Virus record (IMG/VR): IMGVR_UViG_3300022752_003639
Coordinates: 74,458-138,457 of that record
Strand: one strand, 5' to 3'
DNA length: 64,000 nt
DNA from: a virus
Each line of letters begins with the position of its first letter. Within the stretch, counting starts at the first letter, position 1. Under the pieces are notes generated by a model, which saw only the letters and a list, made by a program, of their open reading frames with translations, searched no databases and was not told where the DNA came from. Both the position numbers and the translations under genes were made by a program. This document shows, piece after piece, positions 1 through 11,766 of the stretch.

Positions 1-2517
1 GAAGTGGAAATGGCGCAGAGTGATACATACCAGTTGGCCAAACAGGCTGCAGAACTACATAAAATTCTAATGCGTGCCAGTGAAGAGCAGGGTCTAGAAG
101 GTTGGCAACAGGCTAAGATCACAAAGGCAGCAGACTATATCAATGCTGTCTACAAAAATCTCAATCACGATGTAGACATGGACGGTCATATTGGTGAGCA
201 AGCTCTATCAGAATTAGAAAAACCCAGCGGAACACTTTATATAATATTATTAAGAGACAGAACAGAATCTGTTCGTGTAGTAGGAGACTTTGGGACATTT
301 CCAGCAGAAGTGCAGGCCCGTGCCAGCAAGGTAGGTATTAAGGATAAAGAAGGTCGCAAAGAGCGTCCTCTAAAAGTTAATTTTCTAATGACTAGTGCCA
401 GCCAGGCTCTAGCAGAATTAGACAAAGCACTAGCAGATGTAGATTTTATCGGCGGAGAAAAGGCCGAGTTCGTATTTAAAAATTCTGCTTTTGAAACAGA
501 CATAGAAGATGAGGTGAGGGAACTAAATGATCTAATTCGAAGTGGTGCGGACGAAAGATTTAAGAACTATGAAGAACCAGAAGTAGGTTCCGAACCAGAG
601 ACCAAACCTAAAGGTGTAGATCATTTTGTTGTTGGTCCAGATGGCAAGCGTCGTCGTGTGCCTATACCAGGAAAGCCAAGTAGTCAAATGGGAGGTCATG
701 CTGTAGAACAACCTAAAACATTTACCTACCAACTTAAGAAAACAGAACTAGGTCCTAAACTACGCTCAATGGGCTTTAAGGTAGATGGTAGTCAAATTGT
801 ATTGAGCAAACAACAGCGTGATCAATTACTGGCAAAAATGGGTGATCAACAGTTCGGACAGATATTCGGCCAGGGTGGTAAGTTCACAGAAGGTGGCTAT
901 GACGATCAGTTTAGCCTCGGAGGCAGACTAGAAAGAGACGACGATTTTCGCAATAGAGAACGCAATGCTGGAGTTGAACATGAAAGAAATAACTACCAGG
1001 TAAGCATAAATGGTAGGCCTTGGAAAGTGTTTGCCGATCAAAGGCAAGCTATGAATATTGCTAGAAGTCTTAAAATGAAAGGCAAAGAAGTAGAAGTTTA
1101 TCCTACAGGAGCTAGGCCCTCAGAAAGCGTGGGAGAGGCAGTGAAGAAACCTAATGCTACTACTCGTCATTTAAGAGATTATCCAGTTAGTGATAAGGAC
1201 GTGGCCAAGCCTGTTAAGAAACCTGAAAAGAAAAAACCAGAGCAAGGTGTGGCGGAAATGGACAAGAGCCAACCCAGCCACGGTCGTGATGGTAAGATTA
1301 GCCACAGCACCTATGGTTCAAGAGATAAAGAAGGTTCTGACTATTTCAAAGGTAAGGAAGTTTCTGTTAAGCCTATTACCGTAAAGAAGATGGAAAAAGA
1401 CGCACTTGATATTCTCAAGAAGCAAGGTGTGGCGGAAGGCTCATTGGAAACTGACAATATGGTATCACATATTAGTCAGGTAATACAAAGCATTTATCCA
1501 CGCGGTGGTGATAAAAATACATATATGAAACTGGTAGCCCGAGAAATGCCACGTATAGTGAAAGCCAATCCTAAACTATTCAGAAGAGCATTCGGTATGG
1601 CATATGATAGATTCTTTCATATAGACCAAGACGACGATCAAGATGACGATTTTGATTATACTGATCATAGTATGCGTAAGGGTGAGCGTGGTATGGCGGA
1701 AGTCAGAGGCAATATTGATGCTGATCAAGCAGGATTTTATGTTGTCGACGAGGACGGAAACGCAGTTTCTGGTCCATTTGCTTCTAAACAAGAAGCATAC
1801 GAACGAGCAGCCGAAATGGGTCGTATGTATGATGTAAAATATAAAGGTGATATAATACCTTTAGATTCGTTAATTAGTAAAATAATAAAGACACTACCAC
1901 CAGATGTAACAAGTGATGATCTTCAGGACCCAATGGATCTTGAGCAACAATTAGAAATACTAAGAAGTCCATTAGTAAAAGTATTTTCTAAATTATCACC
2001 TTACGAACAAGCCGAAGTCACAGACGAAGTAGCGAATTATTTTTATGACAGAAGATTTGGTGATTTAGATGAAGGAAAGATCAAAGGTGTGGACGGTAAA
2101 GCCTGCTGGAAAGGCAAGCGTTATGCTGGCAAGGTCAAGAAAGCAGATGGCACCTACAAAGACAAATGTGTAGAGGATGTAGTAGAAGCACTAGAAGAAG
2201 TTAAAAAAGGTCTTTACTACTATGTGAACAAGCGTAAGAAGGCAGGCACCAGTAGACCAGCCAGCCATCCAGATGCTCCAAGTCCACAAGACTGGAAGAA
2301 CGCTGCCAAGACTGCTAAGAAAGAAGATACCTATTCAGAAAGTCTGTTGAATCAACTGGATGCACTGTTAAATGAAAAGGCACCTCCAGGTGACAAGTAT
2401 GAGCGTATGGTCAAGCATATTAAAAAAGGCTATAGCAAAGACGGCAAAATTACAGACAAAGAACGCAGCATCGCATATGCTACAGCATGGAAGGCTAAAA
2501 ACAAGGCAAAAAAGTAA
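1..2517 (+). CDS. Large modular low-complexity protein, probable head internal/scaffold-like polyprotein (5' end probably outside the window)
   Basis: The frame is open from base 1. It is a string of short K-rich or acidic modules separated by [ILV]xE motifs (QGVAE twice, GMAE, VGE, LDE, VVE, LEE, LNE) that resemble T4 gp21 prohead-protease sites. Confidence 0.6.
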   Translation, partial: EVEMAQSDTYQLAKQAAELHKILMRASEEQGLEGWQQAKITKAADYINAVYKNLNHDVDMDGHIGEQALSELEKPSGTLYIILLRDRTESVRVVGDFGTFPAEVQARASKVGIKDKEGRKERPLKVNFLMTSASQALAELDKALADVDFIGGEKAEFVFKNSAFETDIEDEVRELNDLIRSGADERFKNYEEPEVGSEPETKPKGVDHFVVGPDGKRRRVPIPGKPSSQMGGHAVEQPKTFTYQLKKTELGPKLRSMGFKVDGSQIVLSKQQRDQLLAKMGDQQFGQIFGQGGKFTEGGYDDQFSLGGRLERDDDFRNRERNAGVEHERNNYQVSINGRPWKVFADQRQAMNIARSLKMKGKEVEVYPTGARPSESVGEAVKKPNATTRHLRDYPVSDKDVAKPVKKPEKKKPEQGVAEMDKSQPSHGRDGKISHSTYGSRDKEGSDYFKGKEVSVKPITVKKMEKDALDILKKQGVAEGSLETDNMVSHISQVIQSIYPRGGDKNTYMKLVAREMPRIVKANPKLFRRAFGMAYDRFFHIDQDDDQDDDFDYTDHSMRKGERGMAEVRGNIDADQAGFYVVDEDGNAVSGPFASKQEAYERAAEMGRMYDVKYKGDIIPLDSLISKIIKTLPPDVTSDDLQDPMDLEQQLEILRSPLVKVFSKLSPYEQAEVTDEVANYFYDRRFGDLDEGKIKGVDGKACWKGKRYAGKVKKADGTYKDKCVEDVVEALEEVKKGLYYYVNKRKKAGTSRPASHPDAPSPQDWKNAAKTAKKEDTYSESLLNQLDALLNEKAPPGDKYERMVKHIKKGYSKDGKITDKERSIAYATAWKAKNKAKK
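1241..1437 (+). repeat. Exact 17-bp direct repeat AGCAAGGTGTGGCGGAA (1241-1257 and 1421-1437) flanking an in-frame cassette, with a 180-bp period
   Basis: Read directly from the sequence. Both copies encode QGVAE. A partial third copy (TGGCGGAAG) lies near 1694-1702. Confidence 0.9.
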
Positions 2518-2557
2518 GTGAGCAGGAACCAGAAGATCCGACCACGGATCCTGCTCA
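2508..2557 (+). promoter_or_regulatory. Predicted programmed -1 ribosomal frameshift signal
   Basis: Slippery heptamer A_AAA_AAG at 2508-2514, in frame immediately before the TAA. A stem-loop follows: TGAGCAG 2519-2525 pairs with CTGCTCA 2551-2557, and inner GATCCG pairs with CGGATC around an ACCA loop. An SD-like GGAAGG lies at 2489-2494. Confidence 0.8.
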
Positions 2558-2747
2558 GAAGATAAAACCAGTCGGGCCACAACCTAAACTAACACCTAAC
2601 ATGCCTCTAGATACATGGGTAGATAGATTTAAGAATGAAAAGAATGTGTCCAAATATAAACAGTTTAAAAACAAGAGTCCGGAAAAACGTGAACAAATGG
2701 CCTGGGCTGCTTACTATGACGCACATGAACCAAAAAGGAATGCATAA
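2514..2747 (+). CDS. 77-aa -1-frame C-terminal extension of the head-protein-like ORF (VSEQEPEDPTTDPAQ...QFKNKSPEKREQMAWAAYYDAHEPKRNA)
   Basis: Stop-free -1 frame from the slippery site to TAA at 2745-2747. That stop overlaps the next ATG (TAATG). The extension fills an otherwise empty 230-bp gap. It is not in the ORF track. Confidence 0.8.
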   Translation, partial: VSEQEPEDPTTDPAQKIKPVGPQPKLTPNMPLDTWVDRFKNEKNVSKYKQFKNKSPEKREQMAWAAYYDAHEPKRNA

Positions 2748-3166
2748 TGAGATCATATATTGCCATAGTTGAAGCGTTGAATAAGGGCTGCCCTGTGGCC
2801 ACATATAATCTAGATGTTAATCTAAAAAATCGTCAAAAGGCCATAGATGAATATCATTATGGTCCTGCTAATCCAGATGATGCCGGCGACTACTGGAAGA
2901 AGGCTGCTGCAAGATGGAATATCACAGAAAAAACTGCTAAGACTATGAAGTGTGGAAATTGTGCTGCCTTTGATGTGTCTGATAAAATGCGTAAGTGTAT
3001 GGAAGATGGTATCAAGGGGGACGACAAGGCTGTAGACAGTATGGCCACAATCGAAAAAGCAGATCTAGGTTATTGTAACTTCTTGCACTTCAAATGTGCC
3101 GGAACTAGATCATGCACAGCATGGGTCACAGGCGGGGTAATAGATAACAAAGATAGAACTGAGTGA
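2747..3166 (+). CDS. Cys-rich conserved phage protein, probable metal-binding; possible capsid-targeting leader
   Basis: Motifs CGNC and GYCNFLHFKCAGTRSC. N-terminus MRSYIAIVE|A ends in an [ILV]xE site. Confidence 0.6.
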   Translation: MRSYIAIVEALNKGCPVATYNLDVNLKNRQKAIDEYHYGPANPDDAGDYWKKAAARWNITEKTAKTMKCGNCAAFDVSDKMRKCMEDGIKGDDKAVDSMATIEKADLGYCNFLHFKCAGTRSCTAWVTGGVIDNKDRTE

Positions 3167-3176
3167 TTAATGCACT

Positions 3177-3791
3177 ATGTTTACAATTTTAAACACACAG
3201 TTTGTAAGATATTTAGAAATAAGTAAACCCATAGATGACAATTTATTTACAGAAGAAAATGTTCGCTACTTTGACAATGACGGTTTTCAATTAAGTTTAT
3301 TAGAACAAGAATACTACAAGGCTAATCATGTGCCTGTAGTTAATACCCTAAATCGTGCAGGTGATAGGCCATTATGGATGACCTGCAATCATACATCATT
3401 TTATCTCGACCATAGTATGACTCCCCAGCGTTGGTGCTATGTAGCAGAAGCCAAGGAACAATTAACGCATTATATCAAAAAGTTTCCTAGTTTAATAAAA
3501 TATATAAATCTAAAATCTAAATGGGGATTAGACTTTGCCCTAGAATACTATGATGACACAGAGGCATTAGAAATTCTACACATAGAATTTGACTTTAGAA
3601 ATTACTACCAAGCCGTGCTTATGAAACAAGAACTTGAACAAAAAATATCTAGCACAGACTGGGCAGATTTTAAATCACGATTAATCAACAAAAAATCATA
3701 TTGGGAAAACCTACAGGGCCTTGATCAGAACGACTGGAAAGCCAAATTCTGGGGTTTACCAAAGGCCGAAAAAACCTACAAAGTTATTTGA
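3177..3791 (+). CDS. Hypothetical protein
   Basis: 204-aa ORF that fits operon spacing; no motif recognised. Confidence 0.6.
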   Translation: MFTILNTQFVRYLEISKPIDDNLFTEENVRYFDNDGFQLSLLEQEYYKANHVPVVNTLNRAGDRPLWMTCNHTSFYLDHSMTPQRWCYVAEAKEQLTHYIKKFPSLIKYINLKSKWGLDFALEYYDDTEALEILHIEFDFRNYYQAVLMKQELEQKISSTDWADFKSRLINKKSYWENLQGLDQNDWKAKFWGLPKAEKTYKVI

Positions 3792-3815
3792 CTTTACCTA
3801 TAAAGACTGTATAAT
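3788..3815 (+). promoter_or_regulatory. sigma70-type promoter
   Basis: TTGACT-16 bp-TATAAT, followed by SD AAGGAG and ATG at 3835. Confidence 0.7.
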
Positions 3816-3834
3816 TAAAACACAAGGAGATCGT

Positions 3835-4110
3835 ATGAGTAGAGCATTCGGGGCACCGGAACAAGCAAAAATTAAACAGATTGTAGCAGAGGGGGTTACA
3901 GTTATGCAGGAAATTCAAGACCTTACAGAAGGCCTAAATGATACAATTAAAGCAGTTGCAGAAGAATTAGAAGTTAAACCTGCAATTATAAAAAAGGCTA
4001 TTCGTATCGCCATGAAAGATCAATGGGATCAAGTATTCAGAGAATTTGATGATCTTGAAACTATTGTAGATATCAGCGGACATGCCAATCGAAGAGAAGA
4101 CAATGTTTAA
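3835..4110 (+). CDS. Small helical dsDNA-binding protein, T4 DsbA/GapR-like
   Basis: Start reassigned to ATG 3835 (SD and promoter). The pattern EIQDLTEGLNDTIKAVAEELEVKPAIIKKAIRIA resembles DsbA/DUF2312 proteins. Confidence 0.55.
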   Translation: MSRAFGAPEQAKIKQIVAEGVTVMQEIQDLTEGLNDTIKAVAEELEVKPAIIKKAIRIAMKDQWDQVFREFDDLETIVDISGHANRREDNV

Positions 4111-4207
4111 TTGGATTAAAAAAATTATTGCCGACTATCGTAGGCGTAGGCAAATAAAGAAACGTATAGAAGAGCTTAAAAAGCGAGATCCGTTTATCTA
4201 CAAATGA
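4103..4207 (+). CDS. 34-aa basic peptide (MFNWIKKIIADYRRRRQIKKRIEELKKRDPFIYK)
   Basis: Overlaps the upstream gene, and its TGA overlaps the next ATG (ATGA). Below the ORF-track size cutoff. Confidence 0.6.
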   Translation: MFNWIKKIIADYRRRRQIKKRIEELKKRDPFIYK

Positions 4208-5676
4208 TTATTTGGGGAATAAGTGCTAACAGTCACGATGCTGCCTTGTCTGTGTGGCATGACAAAACAATACAATTTGCTGCTCATAGTGAACGGTATA
4301 GCAAGATTAAAAATGACGGCGATCTACATCCCAAACTTATCGCAGAAGCAAAACAGTATGGCGAGCCAGATCTTGTTGTCTGGTATGAAAATCCTTTACT
4401 AAAAACATTTAGGCAATTTACAGCAGGCCAAGGATGGAACTGGTCTGAGAACAATATAAGACAATATCTTAAACGCTATGACATACACAGTCATGTACAC
4501 ATAGGTTCACATCATCACAGTCACGCCGCTGCCGGTTTTTATACCAGTAAGTTTAATGATGCAACAGTCATCTGTATAGACAGCATCGGTGAATATGAAA
4601 CGCTGACAATTTGGCGAGGTATAGGTAACAATCTCAATAAGTGGTATACGCAGGGTTATCCTCACAGCATAGGTCTTTGGTATAGCGCAATGACTCAAAG
4701 GATAGGCCTCAAGCCCAATGAAGAAGAATATATCCTAATGGGAATGGCAGCATATGGCAACCCAGAAAGATTATATCATGTTATTCTAGAAGATTTTTTT
4801 AAGAGCACAAAGGCTCCTGGAATAAAGTTTAAGAATAATTTGCATAGAGGCTGCAAATGGTGGCGCCCTGATTTAGTTTCCGAACAGGATATGTTCGATA
4901 TAGCAGCGGCTACCCAGGCAGTATACGCTGACCTATTACGATCTATTACACAGTATGCAAGAAAAGTATTACCAAGCAGAAATCTAGTGTTAATGGGCGG
5001 ATGTGCCTTAAACTGTTCTGCCAATAGTCTAATTACTGCCGACTGGGATAATGTATGGATAATGCCTAATCCGGGAGATGCAGGCAGTTCCATAGGTAGT
5101 GTATGCAGTTATTTTCAAGAAAAAATCTCATGGCCAGGTCCATATCTAGGCACAGACATGGGAGGTCCTTATCCTGTTGAGGAAACTATCAATGTTCTTA
5201 GATCTAGAAAAATTGTGGGTATGGCTAATGGTAGAGCCGAGTTTGGGCCTCGTGCCCTTGGACATAGAAGTTTACTGGCGGATCCGAGGGGAAATGATAT
5301 TAAAGATAGTGTGAATGAAATTAAACGCAGACAAAAATTTAGACCGTTTGCACCTGCTATATTAGAAGAACATGCGGCCGATTATTTTATCATGCCCCAA
5401 AATATATCATCCAGTCCTTACATGCAATTTGTAGCAAAATGTAGACATCCTGATCTGTTTCCTGCTATAATTCATGCAGATGGTACAAGTAGAGTTCAAA
5501 CAGTTGGAAAAAATGACAGCCCTGGATTTAGGTCTCTACTAGAAAAATGGTTTGAAGAAACAGGATGTCCTATGTTACTAAACACTAGCCTTAATATAAA
5601 AGGACAACCAATTGTAAATGACGAAATTGATGCGTTAGCATTCGAAGAAAGGTATAATGTTAAAGTTTTTACGTAG
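4204..5676 (+). CDS. Carbamoyltransferase, NodU/CmcH family
   Basis: Motifs SHDAA, HHHSHAA, GGCALN, PGDAG, EFGPRALGHRS, FRPFAP, HADGTSRVQTV and LLNTSLN. Confidence 0.93.
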   Translation: MIIWGISANSHDAALSVWHDKTIQFAAHSERYSKIKNDGDLHPKLIAEAKQYGEPDLVVWYENPLLKTFRQFTAGQGWNWSENNIRQYLKRYDIHSHVHIGSHHHSHAAAGFYTSKFNDATVICIDSIGEYETLTIWRGIGNNLNKWYTQGYPHSIGLWYSAMTQRIGLKPNEEEYILMGMAAYGNPERLYHVILEDFFKSTKAPGIKFKNNLHRGCKWWRPDLVSEQDMFDIAAATQAVYADLLRSITQYARKVLPSRNLVLMGGCALNCSANSLITADWDNVWIMPNPGDAGSSIGSVCSYFQEKISWPGPYLGTDMGGPYPVEETINVLRSRKIVGMANGRAEFGPRALGHRSLLADPRGNDIKDSVNEIKRRQKFRPFAPAILEEHAADYFIMPQNISSSPYMQFVAKCRHPDLFPAIIHADGTSRVQTVGKNDSPGFRSLLEKWFEETGCPMLLNTSLNIKGQPIVNDEIDALAFEERYNVKVFT

Positions 5677-5913: not shown

Positions 5914-5969
5914 GGTTCGCGAGCCATAAATCGCATAAGTGGTTGTCCAGCCTTAAGTGGAACAAGGAG
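5914..5969 (+). ncRNA. Candidate cis-regulatory RNA: tandem covarying hairpin/H-type pseudoknot in the polymerase 5' UTR
   Basis: Two units, GGTT-C-GCGA-GCCATAAA-TCGC and GGTT-G-TCCA-GCCTTAAG-TGGA, 27 nt apart. The stems show compensatory changes and abut the SD (AAGGAG 5964-5969). Confidence 0.65.
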
Positions 5970-5974
5970 AAATT

Positions 5975-8647
5975 ATGAGTTATGTAGATGCCATCTGGGA
6001 TCGTGATAATGATATTATCAAAGTTGTTGAACGTGATCCTAAAAAGGGTCGCTTATTTCAAGAATACCCTGCAAGATATATATTTTACTACCCGGATTCA
6101 AAAGGTAAGTATAAATCAATTTACGGTGATAATCTTTCTAGAGTATTAACCAAATCATTTAAAGACTTTCAAAAAGAACAAAGAATACATAATAGTCATA
6201 GACTATTTGAAAGTGACATAAACCCCATATTTAGAACACTAGAAGAAAATTATTTAGGTAAAGAAGAACCTAGACTAAATGTAGCATTTTTTGACATCGA
6301 AGTCGATTTTGATCCAGAAAGAGGATACGCTAGTCCAGACGATCCCTTTATGCCTATCACAGCTATTACAGTAAACCTACAGTGGTTAAATGTTTTAATA
6401 ACATTGGCTATCCCTCCAAAAAGTCTTACATTAGAAGAGGCAAAAGAACAGGTAAAAGATTTTCCAAATACACACTTATTTGAATCTGAAGGAGAAATGT
6501 TAGAAACATTCTTAGAATTATTAGATGATGTAGATGTATTGAGTGGATGGAATTCAGAAGGCTATGATATTCCCTATACAGTAAACAGAGTAACTAAAGT
6601 ATTAAGTAAAGAAGATACTAGAAGATTTTGTTTATGGGATCAATTTCCTAAAAAAAGAGAATACGAAAAATACGGCAAGACCGCCGTGACATATGATCTT
6701 ATAGGTCGAGTACATTTGGATTCTTTAGAGCTTTATAGAAAATATACCTATGAAGAACGTCACACTTTTAGATTAGATGCTATAGGTGAAATTGAAATTG
6801 GAGAAAATAAAACAGTTTACGAAGGAACACTTGACCAATTATATAATAACGACTTTCGTAAATTTATAGAATACAACAGACAAGACGTTGCTTTATTAGA
6901 CAAATTAGACCGAAAACTTAAATTTATCGACCTTGCCAATAAAATTGCTCATGAAAACACAGTATTATTACAGACTACTCTAGGAGCTGTAGCAGTAACC
7001 GAGCAAGCAATTATTAATGAAGCACATCATCGAGGTATGATGGTTCCTAGTAGAGCTAAACGCGATGAGCTAGGTGATACAGGAGCAGCGGGCGCATATG
7101 TAGCCTACCCTAAAAAAGGACTTCATGAATGGATCGGAAGCATTGACATCAATAGTCTATATCCAAGTGTAATTCGTGCATTAAACATGGGACCGGAGAC
7201 CATTGTAGGTCAACTACGCCCAGAAAAAACTGAAAAATATATAAACGAACAAATATCTATACATAAAAAAACATTCGCAGGGGCCTGGGAAGGAATGTTT
7301 GGAACGCTAGAATACGAAGCAGTAATTAAAAAAGATAGAGCATTTGAAATTGTTATAGATTGGGAAAACAACGAAACCAGTGTGTTATCTGCGGCAGAGG
7401 TACATAATTTAATTTTTGAAAGTAATAACCATTGGATGCTCAGTGCAAATGGAACTATTTTTACCTATGAAAAAGAAGGCATAATTCCTGGCCTACTGAA
7501 ACGATGGTATGCTGAACGTAAAGAATTACAAGGAAAATTAAAATTAGCTAAAGATGCGGAAAATATTATAGAAGAAGAGTATTGGGACAAGAGACAATTA
7601 GTTAAAAAGATTAATCTTAATAGCTTGTACGGCGCTATTTTAAATCCAGGATGTAGATTTTTTGACAAGCGTATAGGTCAATCAACAACATTAACAGGTA
7701 GATCTATAGCAAAACACATGGCAGGAACAGTAAATGAAATTGTAACAGGTGAGTTTGATCATGTAGGGAAAGCTATAATCTATGGTGATACAGACAGTTG
7801 TTACTTCAGTGCATACTCTACATTAAAAAGAGATATCGAAAAAGGACAAGTACCTTGGAATAAAGATATTATAATTCAACTTTATAATCAAATCGCAGAT
7901 AAAGTAAATCAAACATTCCCAGAATTTATGCTTGCAGCATTTCATTGTCCCAAATCTAGAGGAGATGTTATTAAAGGGGGCAGAGAAATTGTTGCAAGCA
8001 AAGGTTTGTTTATCACTAAAAAACGCTATGCAGTTCTATATTATGATAAGGACGGAAAACGCACAGACGTAGACGGAAAAACTGGCAAAATTAAAGCTAT
8101 GGGCTTAGACTTAAAAAGAAGTGACACTCCTGAATTTATGCAAAAATTCCTAGAAGAAATTCTTGGCAAAGTTCTACACGGCGAACAAGAAAAAGAAATT
8201 TTAGATAGAATTAGTGAATTTCGAACAGAATTCAAAGCTCGCCCAGGTTGGGAAAAAGGTTCGCCTAAACGTGCTAATAATATTACAGAATACGAAGCTA
8301 AAGAAAAGAAAGCAGGCAAGGCTAATATGCCGGGACATGTACGTGCAAGCATAAATTGGAATACTTTACGAAGAATGAATGGAGACAAATATTCCATGCA
8401 AATTGTTGATGGTATGAAAGTTATAGTTTGTAAAGTAAAAGACAATCCATTAGGATTTACCAGCGTGGCCTATCCTACAGACGAATTACGGTTACCAAAA
8501 TGGTTTCAAGAATTACCATTCGACCATTCAGAAATGGAAACAACAATCATTAACAATAAATTAGACAATCTCATCGGTGTTCTAGAATGGGATTTAGAAA
8601 GCACTACACAGGATAATACTTTTGGCAAGTTATTTTCTTTTGAATGA
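5975..8647 (+). CDS. g43: Family B DNA polymerase (T4 gp43-like) with 3'-5' exonuclease
   Basis: Motifs FFDIEVD, SIDINSLYPS, KKINLNSLYG and YGDTDS. Start ATG 5975 follows an SD. No intein seen. Confidence 0.97.
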   Translation: MSYVDAIWDRDNDIIKVVERDPKKGRLFQEYPARYIFYYPDSKGKYKSIYGDNLSRVLTKSFKDFQKEQRIHNSHRLFESDINPIFRTLEENYLGKEEPRLNVAFFDIEVDFDPERGYASPDDPFMPITAITVNLQWLNVLITLAIPPKSLTLEEAKEQVKDFPNTHLFESEGEMLETFLELLDDVDVLSGWNSEGYDIPYTVNRVTKVLSKEDTRRFCLWDQFPKKREYEKYGKTAVTYDLIGRVHLDSLELYRKYTYEERHTFRLDAIGEIEIGENKTVYEGTLDQLYNNDFRKFIEYNRQDVALLDKLDRKLKFIDLANKIAHENTVLLQTTLGAVAVTEQAIINEAHHRGMMVPSRAKRDELGDTGAAGAYVAYPKKGLHEWIGSIDINSLYPSVIRALNMGPETIVGQLRPEKTEKYINEQISIHKKTFAGAWEGMFGTLEYEAVIKKDRAFEIVIDWENNETSVLSAAEVHNLIFESNNHWMLSANGTIFTYEKEGIIPGLLKRWYAERKELQGKLKLAKDAENIIEEEYWDKRQLVKKINLNSLYGAILNPGCRFFDKRIGQSTTLTGRSIAKHMAGTVNEIVTGEFDHVGKAIIYGDTDSCYFSAYSTLKRDIEKGQVPWNKDIIIQLYNQIADKVNQTFPEFMLAAFHCPKSRGDVIKGGREIVASKGLFITKKRYAVLYYDKDGKRTDVDGKTGKIKAMGLDLKRSDTPEFMQKFLEEILGKVLHGEQEKEILDRISEFRTEFKARPGWEKGSPKRANNITEYEAKEKKAGKANMPGHVRASINWNTLRRMNGDKYSMQIVDGMKVIVCKVKDNPLGFTSVAYPTDELRLPKWFQELPFDHSEMETTIINNKLDNLIGVLEWDLESTTQDNTFGKLFSFE

Positions 8648-11337: not shown

Positions 11338-11766
11338 ATGGCAATATGGCGTATTACAAATTATCAAAAAAAGTCGGCTGATGAAATTCAAACCTGGCGT
11401 AAAGGTGATGATGAATTTCAAAAAACAGAAACATACCGTTGGGGTGTTTGGGAATGTGAAAGTGATGAAAAGCCTGTAGTTGATTTAAACAACCCAGGTG
11501 GCTGGAGTCCAGATAATGCAGATCAAGAAGATTATACCTGGGAAATGGTTGAAATGATTGATGGTTGTTATGTGGATTGGGATTTTATAGGCTGTCCGGA
11601 TATGGATGAGGAAGAACAAGAACGTATTCAAGAACTTTGGAACGAAAACTATTACGAAGGATTAGAAGGCGAAGACTGGATTAATGACGAAACTGAATAT
11701 TGGCTTCATGGCCCATTGAAATTAACCAATGTAGATACTGGTGAAGAATGGCATGGAGAAGACTGA
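11338..11766 (+). CDS. Highly acidic, Trp-rich hypothetical protein
   Basis: ATG 11338 directly follows the dpdA stop; D/E-rich. Confidence 0.65.
   Translation: MAIWRITNYQKKSADEIQTWRKGDDEFQKTETYRWGVWECESDEKPVVDLNNPGGWSPDNADQEDYTWEMVEMIDGCYVDWDFIGCPDMDEEEQERIQELWNENYYEGLEGEDWINDETEYWLHGPLKLTNVDTGEEWHGED

Follow-up and report, generated by a model that had tools for sequence, protein, structure and literature searches.

A gene at the start of a stretch of viral DNA raises the question of whether translation always ends at its stop codon or continues, for some of the ribosomes, in a second reading frame. The stretch (the window) comprises 64,000 nucleotides (nt), bases 74458-138457 of the 138,457-bp IMG/VR record IMGVR_UViG_3300022752_003639, which has an estimated completeness of 35% and an overall G+C content of 35% and originates from an uncultured, T4-related giant lake phage. 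The open reading frame (ORF) in question terminates in GCA AAA AAG TAA (2506-2517), where a slippery heptamer is followed directly by the zero-frame stop codon, and the -1 frame, beginning with GTA at 2514, offers 77 sense codons before a TAA at 2745-2747 that overlaps an ATG at 2747. The original prediction described this end of the ORF, a Shine-Dalgarno (SD)-like GGAAGG 13 nt upstream of the heptamer, a hairpin 4 nt downstream and the 77-codon -1 frame, all of which were confirmed in the sequence. Its ORF of 837 amino acids was correct at the end but not in length: the start lies 285 nt before the window and is cut off by the window edge, and the full ORF in the contig (L002:13716-16517) encodes 933 amino acids. 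The predicted shifted product has 1010 amino acids compared with 933 for the zero-frame product. Based on the comparison of related sequences, a programmed -1 ribosomal frameshift at A_AAA_AAG that would yield these two isoforms is the reading we favor, with a probability of roughly 0.8.

Conservation of the junction among related loci

The heptamer by itself is not significant. Bare A_AAA_AAG is found at chance level (31 copies in the window compared with 34 ± 6 in shuffled sequences), and it is the comparative evidence that carries the case for frameshifting. In the 138-kb contig, the gene studied here is the sole ORF with 80 or more codons that ends in A_AAA_AAR plus a stop codon with a long -1 continuation that lacks a start codon at the junction; one other ORF with such an end represents an ordinary ATGA gene overlap. 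At 35% G+C about 7% of random codons are stops, and by our own arithmetic a frame of 82 codons would remain open by chance with a probability of about 0.2%.

Related loci were collected from IMG/VR and from one metagenome scan. A protein-pattern search of IMG/VR for loci that encode the extension identified the in-phase sequence AAAAAAG-TAA-G[T/C]GAGCAGG in 35 out of 35 loci. The metagenome scan added further loci, and the total amounts to 35 distinct extension nucleotide sequences, which share the 20-nt block AAAAAAG-TAA-G[T/C]GAGCAGGA together with the distal CCTGCT arm of the hairpin. The heptamer is A_AAA_AAG in 32 of these sequences and A_AAA_AAA in the remaining three (L131-L133), and the TAA was retained also in loci retrieved with protein patterns that left the stop bases free. 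A separate scan with a 19-nt DNA motif returned 43 contigs, and all contigs with the A_AAA_AAG form (36/36) encode the module in the -1 frame. The 7 other contigs (A_AAA_AAA form) were dropped as their motifs lie in unrelated short ORFs. The cassette is present as a single copy in the contig of the window and in five other large contigs. Overall, the heptamer, the TAA, the two hairpin arms and a -1 ORF without a start codon in the 35 sequences strongly support the predicted -1 frameshift with two putative isoforms that differ by a C-terminal module.

At least four upstream ends that are unrelated to one another precede the cassette, ...AWKAKNKxKK (the one in the window), ...DPYFESLRAKVEELAKK (...DPYFESL..EELAKK), ...TKHKGLPEK(N)K(S/P)KK and ...WMKNKGYKSHKxKK, and the conserved nucleotides begin at the heptamer regardless of which of them is present. 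The closest homologue found (L003) is 61% identical over residues 3-921 and has the junction GCA AAA AAG TAA GTGAGCAGGAGCC; its -1 extension is 53% identical to that of the window, and the two differ in length by 12 nt, in frame, ahead of the ATG. As judged from these alignments, the heptamer, stop codon, hairpin, linker and module appear to behave as one unit that is placed behind different penultimate modules. A comparison of homologues, proposed together with the original prediction, showed that the heptamer and the hairpin are conserved in the cassettes and that a single homologue, P0008 (951 amino acids), is fused in frame. P0008, for which the protein sequence only was available, has modules a and b and the linker within a single frame (...AWKAKNKAKKVDEQELKAQ...DMSFDSWEQRFQ...), and its linker has no Pro-Ala pair at the position where the cassettes have the 3' arm.

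The -1 frame and the hairpin

A stop codon closes the -1 frame 1-16 codons before the heptamer in 25 out of 25 non-redundant cassettes, and in the same 25 no ATG, GTG or TTG occurs in this frame until codon 30-36. The first -1-frame start codon in the window is the ATG at 2601, which has no SD sequence, and the linker peptide VSEQEPEDPTTDPAQK is encoded upstream of it. The internal ATG is missing in three lineages, L113/L207, L117 (GTG/TTG only) and L246 (no Met in the linker), and L113 contains no start codon whatsoever before the module. GGAG, GAGG or AGGA was found upstream of the internal ATG in 0 out of 32 loci, compared with 30 out of 100 long-ORF starts in the genome, set crudely at the first ATG, and 9% of random positions. 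An ATG that overlaps a Trp codon (GC ATG G) further upstream cannot serve as a start in the window or in L003, as each has -1-frame stops after it, at positions that differ between the two.

The region between the stop codon and the internal ATG shows the pattern expected of translated DNA. When the 35 sequences are aligned by codon, nucleotide diversity (positions 1/2/3) amounts to 0.29/0.27/0.51 for the linker ahead of the Met and to 0.22/0.16/0.50 for the module. Seven different distances between the heptamer and the D-x-W motif of the module were identified (33-40 codons), and every one of them is in frame. The variation at third positions, the in-frame indels and the lack of a start argue that this region is translated in the -1 frame. 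Direct observation covers the elements of the site and how far they are conserved, as well as the coding signature seen in the linker and the absence of an independent start.

The hairpin consists of a 9-bp stem in which 2519-2527 pairs with 2549-2557 and of a 4-bp apical stem. The 86 nt that follow the heptamer fold with -20.0 kcal/mol (RNAfold, z = -2.86), and 2 out of 200 shuffled sequences fold as well. The same stem was predicted in 20 out of 20 distinct homologous segments (-18 to -29 kcal/mol); the apical stem of the window is absent from the homologues. The 6-bp core AGCAGG/CCUGCU is invariant and two inner C-G pairs are nearly so, and both arms persist at distances of 23, 26, 35 or 41 nt between the arm cores. 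In an alignment of 21 sequences, 85% of the cells are paired, compared with 24-46% if the 3' partners are slid by 1-3 columns. Codon usage within the arms is fixed: CCT (Pro), GCT (Ala), GAG (Glu) and CAG (Gln) are used in 35 out of 35 sequences, while elsewhere in the extensions the same codons account for 31% of Pro, 36% of Ala, 32% of Glu and 42% of Gln, respectively. The codons of the 5' arm are invariant also in loci that were found through protein patterns. These fixed synonymous sites in the arms are independent support for the predicted hairpin. The coordinates of all features are collected in table 1.

Table 1. Features of the shift site, the -1 extension and the surrounding genes (window coordinates).
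Feature	Position	Strand	Remarks
Zero-frame gene, 3' part	1-2517	+	Ends in module ...APPGDKYERMVKHIKKGYSKDGKITDKERSIAYATAWKAKNKAKK
SD-like GGAAGG	2489-2494	+	13 nt upstream of heptamer; within Trp-Lys codons
TAA closing the -1 frame	2496-2498	+	10 nt before heptamer; frame then open 2499-2744
Slippery heptamer A_AAA_AAG	2508-2514	+	X_XXY_YYZ phase of zero frame
Zero-frame stop TAA	2515-2517	+	Directly 3' of heptamer; TAA in every cassette
-1 linker VSEQEPEDPTTDPAQKIKPVGPQPKLTPN	2514-2600	+	Pro/Ala/Gln/Glu-rich, predicted disordered, without start codon
Hairpin	2519-2557	+	Spacer of 4 nt from heptamer
Hairpin 5' arm TGAGCAGGA(ACC)	2519-2530	+	
Hairpin 3' arm (GGA)TCCTGCTCA	2546-2557	+	
-1 module MPLDTWVDRF...QFKNKSPEKREQMAWAAYYDAHEPKRNA plus TAA	2601-2747	+	Predicted two-helix module
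Next gene, 139 amino acids	2747-3166	+	No family match; ATG overlaps extension TAA (TAATG)
Carbamoyltransferase	4204-5676		
T4-type family B DNA polymerase	5957-8647		

Mechanism and alternative explanations

The occurrence of the shift, its efficiency and the role of the added module are what we infer from these comparisons. According to the proposed mechanism, most ribosomes would read AAA AAG and stop at the adjacent TAA, which gives the 933-amino-acid form. The hairpin 4 nt downstream, together with slow termination at the stop codon in the A site, would hold some ribosomes on the heptamer, and the held ribosomes would slip by -1, either by a joint movement of the two tRNA-Lys or by a movement of the P-site tRNA-Lys from AAG to AAA. 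Slipped ribosomes would read GTA AGT GAG..., add a disordered linker of 29 residues and a basic two-helix module of 48 residues, and end at the TAA that overlaps the ATG of the next gene to give the 1010-amino-acid form. The shift would be stimulated by the 3' hairpin and probably also by the zero-frame stop next to the heptamer. The extension probably supplies a second copy of the helical basic module that terminates many proteins of these phages.

Several observations weigh against this reading. The cassettes are related by descent and the counts given above overstate the number of independent events. A -1 frame without a stop between the heptamer and a GTG in the Trp codon is seen in some lineages (P0126; L128/L129), where gene callers annotated an 83-amino-acid gene of its own. 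The spacer of 4-6 nt across the cassettes is at the short end for bacterial stimulators, and no tRNA-Lys is encoded on the contig, on which tRNA-Leu and tRNA-Met are the only tRNAs. The complete dnaX-type site of the original prediction did not hold up as a conserved feature: the SD-like motif varies by cassette (GGAAGG at -13, GAGG at -7, AAGG elsewhere) or is absent, and a Rfam scan of 2400-2800 gave the DnaX frameshift element RF00382 as the sole match, over the full model length, with 19.3 bits (E = 0.053) against a gathering score of 35 bits. This element matches 2 out of 13 cassettes, those of the window and of L117 (20.6 bits), and the 11 others show no match at E <= 10. The hairpin shows essentially no covariation, with one two-sided change and a score that is reached by 97 out of 500 shuffles, the covariation term of RNAalifold is about zero, and 7 out of 12 pairs never vary. 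Furthermore, the bases of the 5' arm were partly fixed by some of the retrieval patterns, and selection for the peptide V-S-E-Q-E-P ... P-A could account for part of the conservation. The predicted stem is thus conserved yet unproven by compensatory change, and no claim of evolutionary proof is made for it.

Three other explanations of the locus were weighed against the frameshift. The extension might be a separate small gene, either of 48 amino acids from the ATG at 2601 or, in some lineages, of 83 amino acids from a GTG or ATG situated within the end of the upstream gene, in which case 2518-2600 would be an untranslated spacer and the hairpin would have another role such as RNA stability or processing. 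Public gene calls of this kind exist (P0127, 49 amino acids; P0146, 48 amino acids; P0126, 83 amino acids from GTG), most lineages have the internal ATG, and the ESM Atlas entry of the window's protein begins at residue 35. However, the three lineages without the ATG, and above all L113 without any start before the module, do not fit a gene of its own, nor does the lack of SD sequences at all 32 internal ATGs. The supposed spacer varies mainly at third positions and accepts indels only in frame, stops separate the Trp-codon ATG from the heptamer in the window and in L003, the module is mostly found as the C-terminal domain of larger proteins, and a separate gene would have no need for an in-phase heptamer and TAA that are invariant. 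A separate gene is therefore considered improbable. The 1010-amino-acid fusion could also arise by standard decoding if RNA polymerase adds one A to some of the mRNAs. The site contains a homopolymer of A, slippage is known in bacteria for runs of 9 A or T (PMC5009743), and a related site in the same module family has 10 A (L156-L163), which is an efficient length. The run studied here has only 6 A (7 in L131-L133), below known efficient sites and short of the criterion of about 8-9, and it was scored as lengthened in 0 out of 35 sequences. The conserved phase of the heptamer, the adjacent stop codon and a hairpin that begins 4-6 nt downstream belong to ribosomal shifting and are not required by a polymerase, which makes transcriptional slippage very unlikely.

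The last explanation is that the A-run at the junction was misassembled or that a recent mutation truncated an in-frame gene of 1010 amino acids. Homopolymer runs are error-prone and P0008 is in frame across the junction, but the A6G-TAA junction recurs in dozens of independent assemblies from many samples with extensions that are 48-68% identical, and the assembly error considered in the original prediction is thereby disfavored. A null mutation would not keep the -1 frame open and constrained with the heptamer and stop invariant. The loss of the Pro-Ala codons of the 3' arm in P0008, as judged at the protein level, would be expected if the hairpin matters only where a shift is required. An artefact or decay can hardly be correct and is already contradicted by the comparative data.

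A wider interpretation of the frameshift is doubtful. The A_AAA_AAG-TAA site would be a general, portable recoding device on modular, possibly polyprotein-like proteins of this clade of giant lake phages, moved by recombination as a unit of shift site, hairpin, linker and module behind different penultimate modules, with a second site inside the module in other members. Cleavage by a maturation protease at V-S-E/Q would release a small basic peptide in the virion, in a dose set by the efficiency of shifting. The junction K-K-V-S-E-Q (I-S-E-Q in three loci) is conserved and fits [ILV]-x-E, but selection on V-S-E-Q at the level of the peptide and of the RNA is inseparable because G-TAA-G and the stem already fix the bases.

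Modules, neighboring genes and known systems

The -1 extension was predicted with AlphaFold2 from an alignment of 15 sequences with a mean predicted local distance difference test (pLDDT) score of 68 and about 80 in the module. Helices were predicted at 37-45 and 61-76, and the linker was predicted to be disordered (approximately residues 1-30), with a pLDDT below 50 for residues 1-23. The extension matches no Pfam or PHROG family, and a search of the ESM Atlas returned only unnamed viral clusters (<0.9). An exhaustive profile search matched the module to 131 clusters (50% identity, E <= 1e-3), and in most of them profile positions 33-85 lie at the extreme C-terminus of proteins of 100-1000 amino acids with varied N-termini. 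A similar motif in the final amphipathic helix is present in the modules encoded by 2371-2514 (...DKERSIAYATAWKAKNK) and 2601-2744 (...EKREQMAWAAYYDAHEP), and the zero-frame terminal module and the module added by frameshifting may be distant duplicates. In several loci (L092:1501-2370, L093, L096:685-1098, L103:1501-1902) the -1 ORF runs past the module into more modules (...NENFADGKNPQDKGDSKRHG...GGRKGQLAHWLANMKAGRAKK) with extensions of 133-289 amino acids, so that a frameshift there can append more than one module.

A second site in the same module family has the sequence CCA GAA AAA AAA AAG TAA TGG CC with 10 A (L156:924-1010, L158-L163). The zero frame ends in ...QFKNKTPEKKK followed by the stop, and the -1 frame goes on with KKVMATAALYKARQPKVKKQ to its own stop, which completes the module. 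This site contains A_AAA_AAG-TAA, yet its A-run is long enough for transcriptional slippage. Approximately 40 protein clusters in the exhaustive search end exactly at ...PEKKK. Other genes in related viral contigs that contain an internal APPGDKYERMVKHIKK module have ORFs that end in ...EIEEEKK with GAA AAA AAG followed by TAA or TGA (L077:1728, L078, L079:1620, L084:1521, L087:1524). A -1 ORF of 42-47 codons (KKVKGATVEVMP...KKYxLKALKSQ) then follows, and in related contigs it is a separate gene with an ATGA overlap. Such ends could be a third site of the A_AAA_AAG-stop kind; alternatively, the -1 ORF could be an ordinary gene that starts at a GTG and overlaps the one before it.

The carrier protein shows weak Pfam and PHROGs matches of unknown function, and its C-terminal module is common to 715 proteins with diverse N-termini. 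The carrier (1-2517; also P0003, P0005 and P0008) is built from short modules, strung together, which reappear in varied order and combination at the termini of hundreds of proteins of giant phages. Recurrent modules include GLYYYVNKRKKAGTSRP..., GKIKGVDGKACWKGKRYAG...DKCV and APPGDKYERMVKHIKKGY...AWKAKNK, and the short modules are joined by linkers of the ...QGVAE(G) type (...GVAE... is recurrent).

The cassette adjoins replication and auxiliary genes. Genes for tRNA-Leu(TAA) and tRNA-Met(CAT) are adjacent to each other at 11429-11605 of the full contig, upstream of the window. A gp23-type capsid gene and a prohead protease (Peptidase_S77), which bear on the putative head-protein-like label and the putative protease site of the original prediction, gave no match on the 35%-complete contig in searches that had no positive control. 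Neither a megablast of 1-4200 nor a tblastn of the extension against GenBank phages returned a close cultured relative, and the cassette was not found in any GenBank phage with either program.

The mechanism itself is textbook, and the cassette is a new predicted example with unusually good comparative support; literature searches returned no description of it. If the frameshift is real, it adds a conserved -1 frameshift cassette composed of a heptamer, an adjacent stop and a hairpin in uncultured T4-related giant phages, and public calls would wrongly split the gene into a 933-amino-acid protein and a spurious ORF of 48-83 amino acids. Truncation of the same kind is probable for the dozens of clusters whose sequence ends in ...PEKKK. 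The natural variants (A_AAA_AAG and A_AAA_AAA heptamers, four loop lengths and one fusion) constitute a test set for the tuning of shifting by the stop codon and the hairpin.

Among known systems, the site shares with E. coli dnaX the A_AAA_AAG heptamer, its phase and a stem-loop (predicted here) that follows after a few nt, to which the window adds the SD-like GGAAGG upstream. It differs in its spacer of 4-6 nt, in its long and variable loop (23-41 nt), and in its location in a modular phage protein instead of a clamp-loader subunit. In a minority of dnaX genes the zero-frame stop directly follows the shift site and the long product is made by shifting (PMC5009743); the cassette resembles these genes in the stop adjacent to the site and in the longer product that would result from shifting. 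Membership in the DnaX RNA family was rejected due to the sub-threshold score and since the SD-like 5' stimulator about 10 nt upstream is not conserved. The site thus resembles dnaX in two of three parts but is not a member of the DnaX RNA family.

The orfA-orfB arrangement of the IS3 family and IS911 has the same heptamer, a structured 3' stimulator and a transframe fusion, which is predicted here. The cassette differs by the absence of a transposase and of terminal repeats, by a -1 ORF of only 77 codons, and by a simple hairpin in place of a three-way junction or pseudoknot. The G/GT tail chaperone genes of lambda and most tailed phages share with the cassette a conserved -1 shift, predicted for the latter, close to the gene's 3' end and a common N-terminal part of both products; in that system the short and long forms are made in a fixed ratio. 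The two differ in protein family and size (933 amino acids here compared with about 140), in genomic context, as G/GT is located between the tail tube and tape measure genes and the cassette by replication and auxiliary genes, and in the added part, which is a small mobile module here and the T domain there.

Promiscuous C-terminal domains that are added by frameshifting have been described for T3/T7 gene 10A/10B, Lactobacillus phage A2 and Listeria phages A118/A500/PSA (PMC5009743), and the immunoglobulin-like (Ig-like) phage domains (Fraser et al. 2006) are reviewed in the same work. The cassette differs from these systems in its shift site, which is A_AAA_AAG plus a stop codon instead of the G_GUU_UUC of T7 or the CCC_UGA (+1) of the Listeria phages, and in its carrier, which has no capsid or tail assignment of the kind that phage structural proteins have. 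Furthermore, the added module is about 48 amino acids long, basic and predicted by AlphaFold2 to form two helices, in contrast to the beta fold of Ig-like domains. The likeness to the Ig-like domains lies in a frameshift at the end of an ORF with a predicted minor, longer isoform that carries an extra C-terminal domain, and in the occurrence of one domain on many phage proteins, either in frame or by frameshifting. If the proposed shift occurs, the cassette would be a parallel to the Ig-like domains in which a promiscuous small C-terminal module is attached to phage proteins in frame or by recoding.

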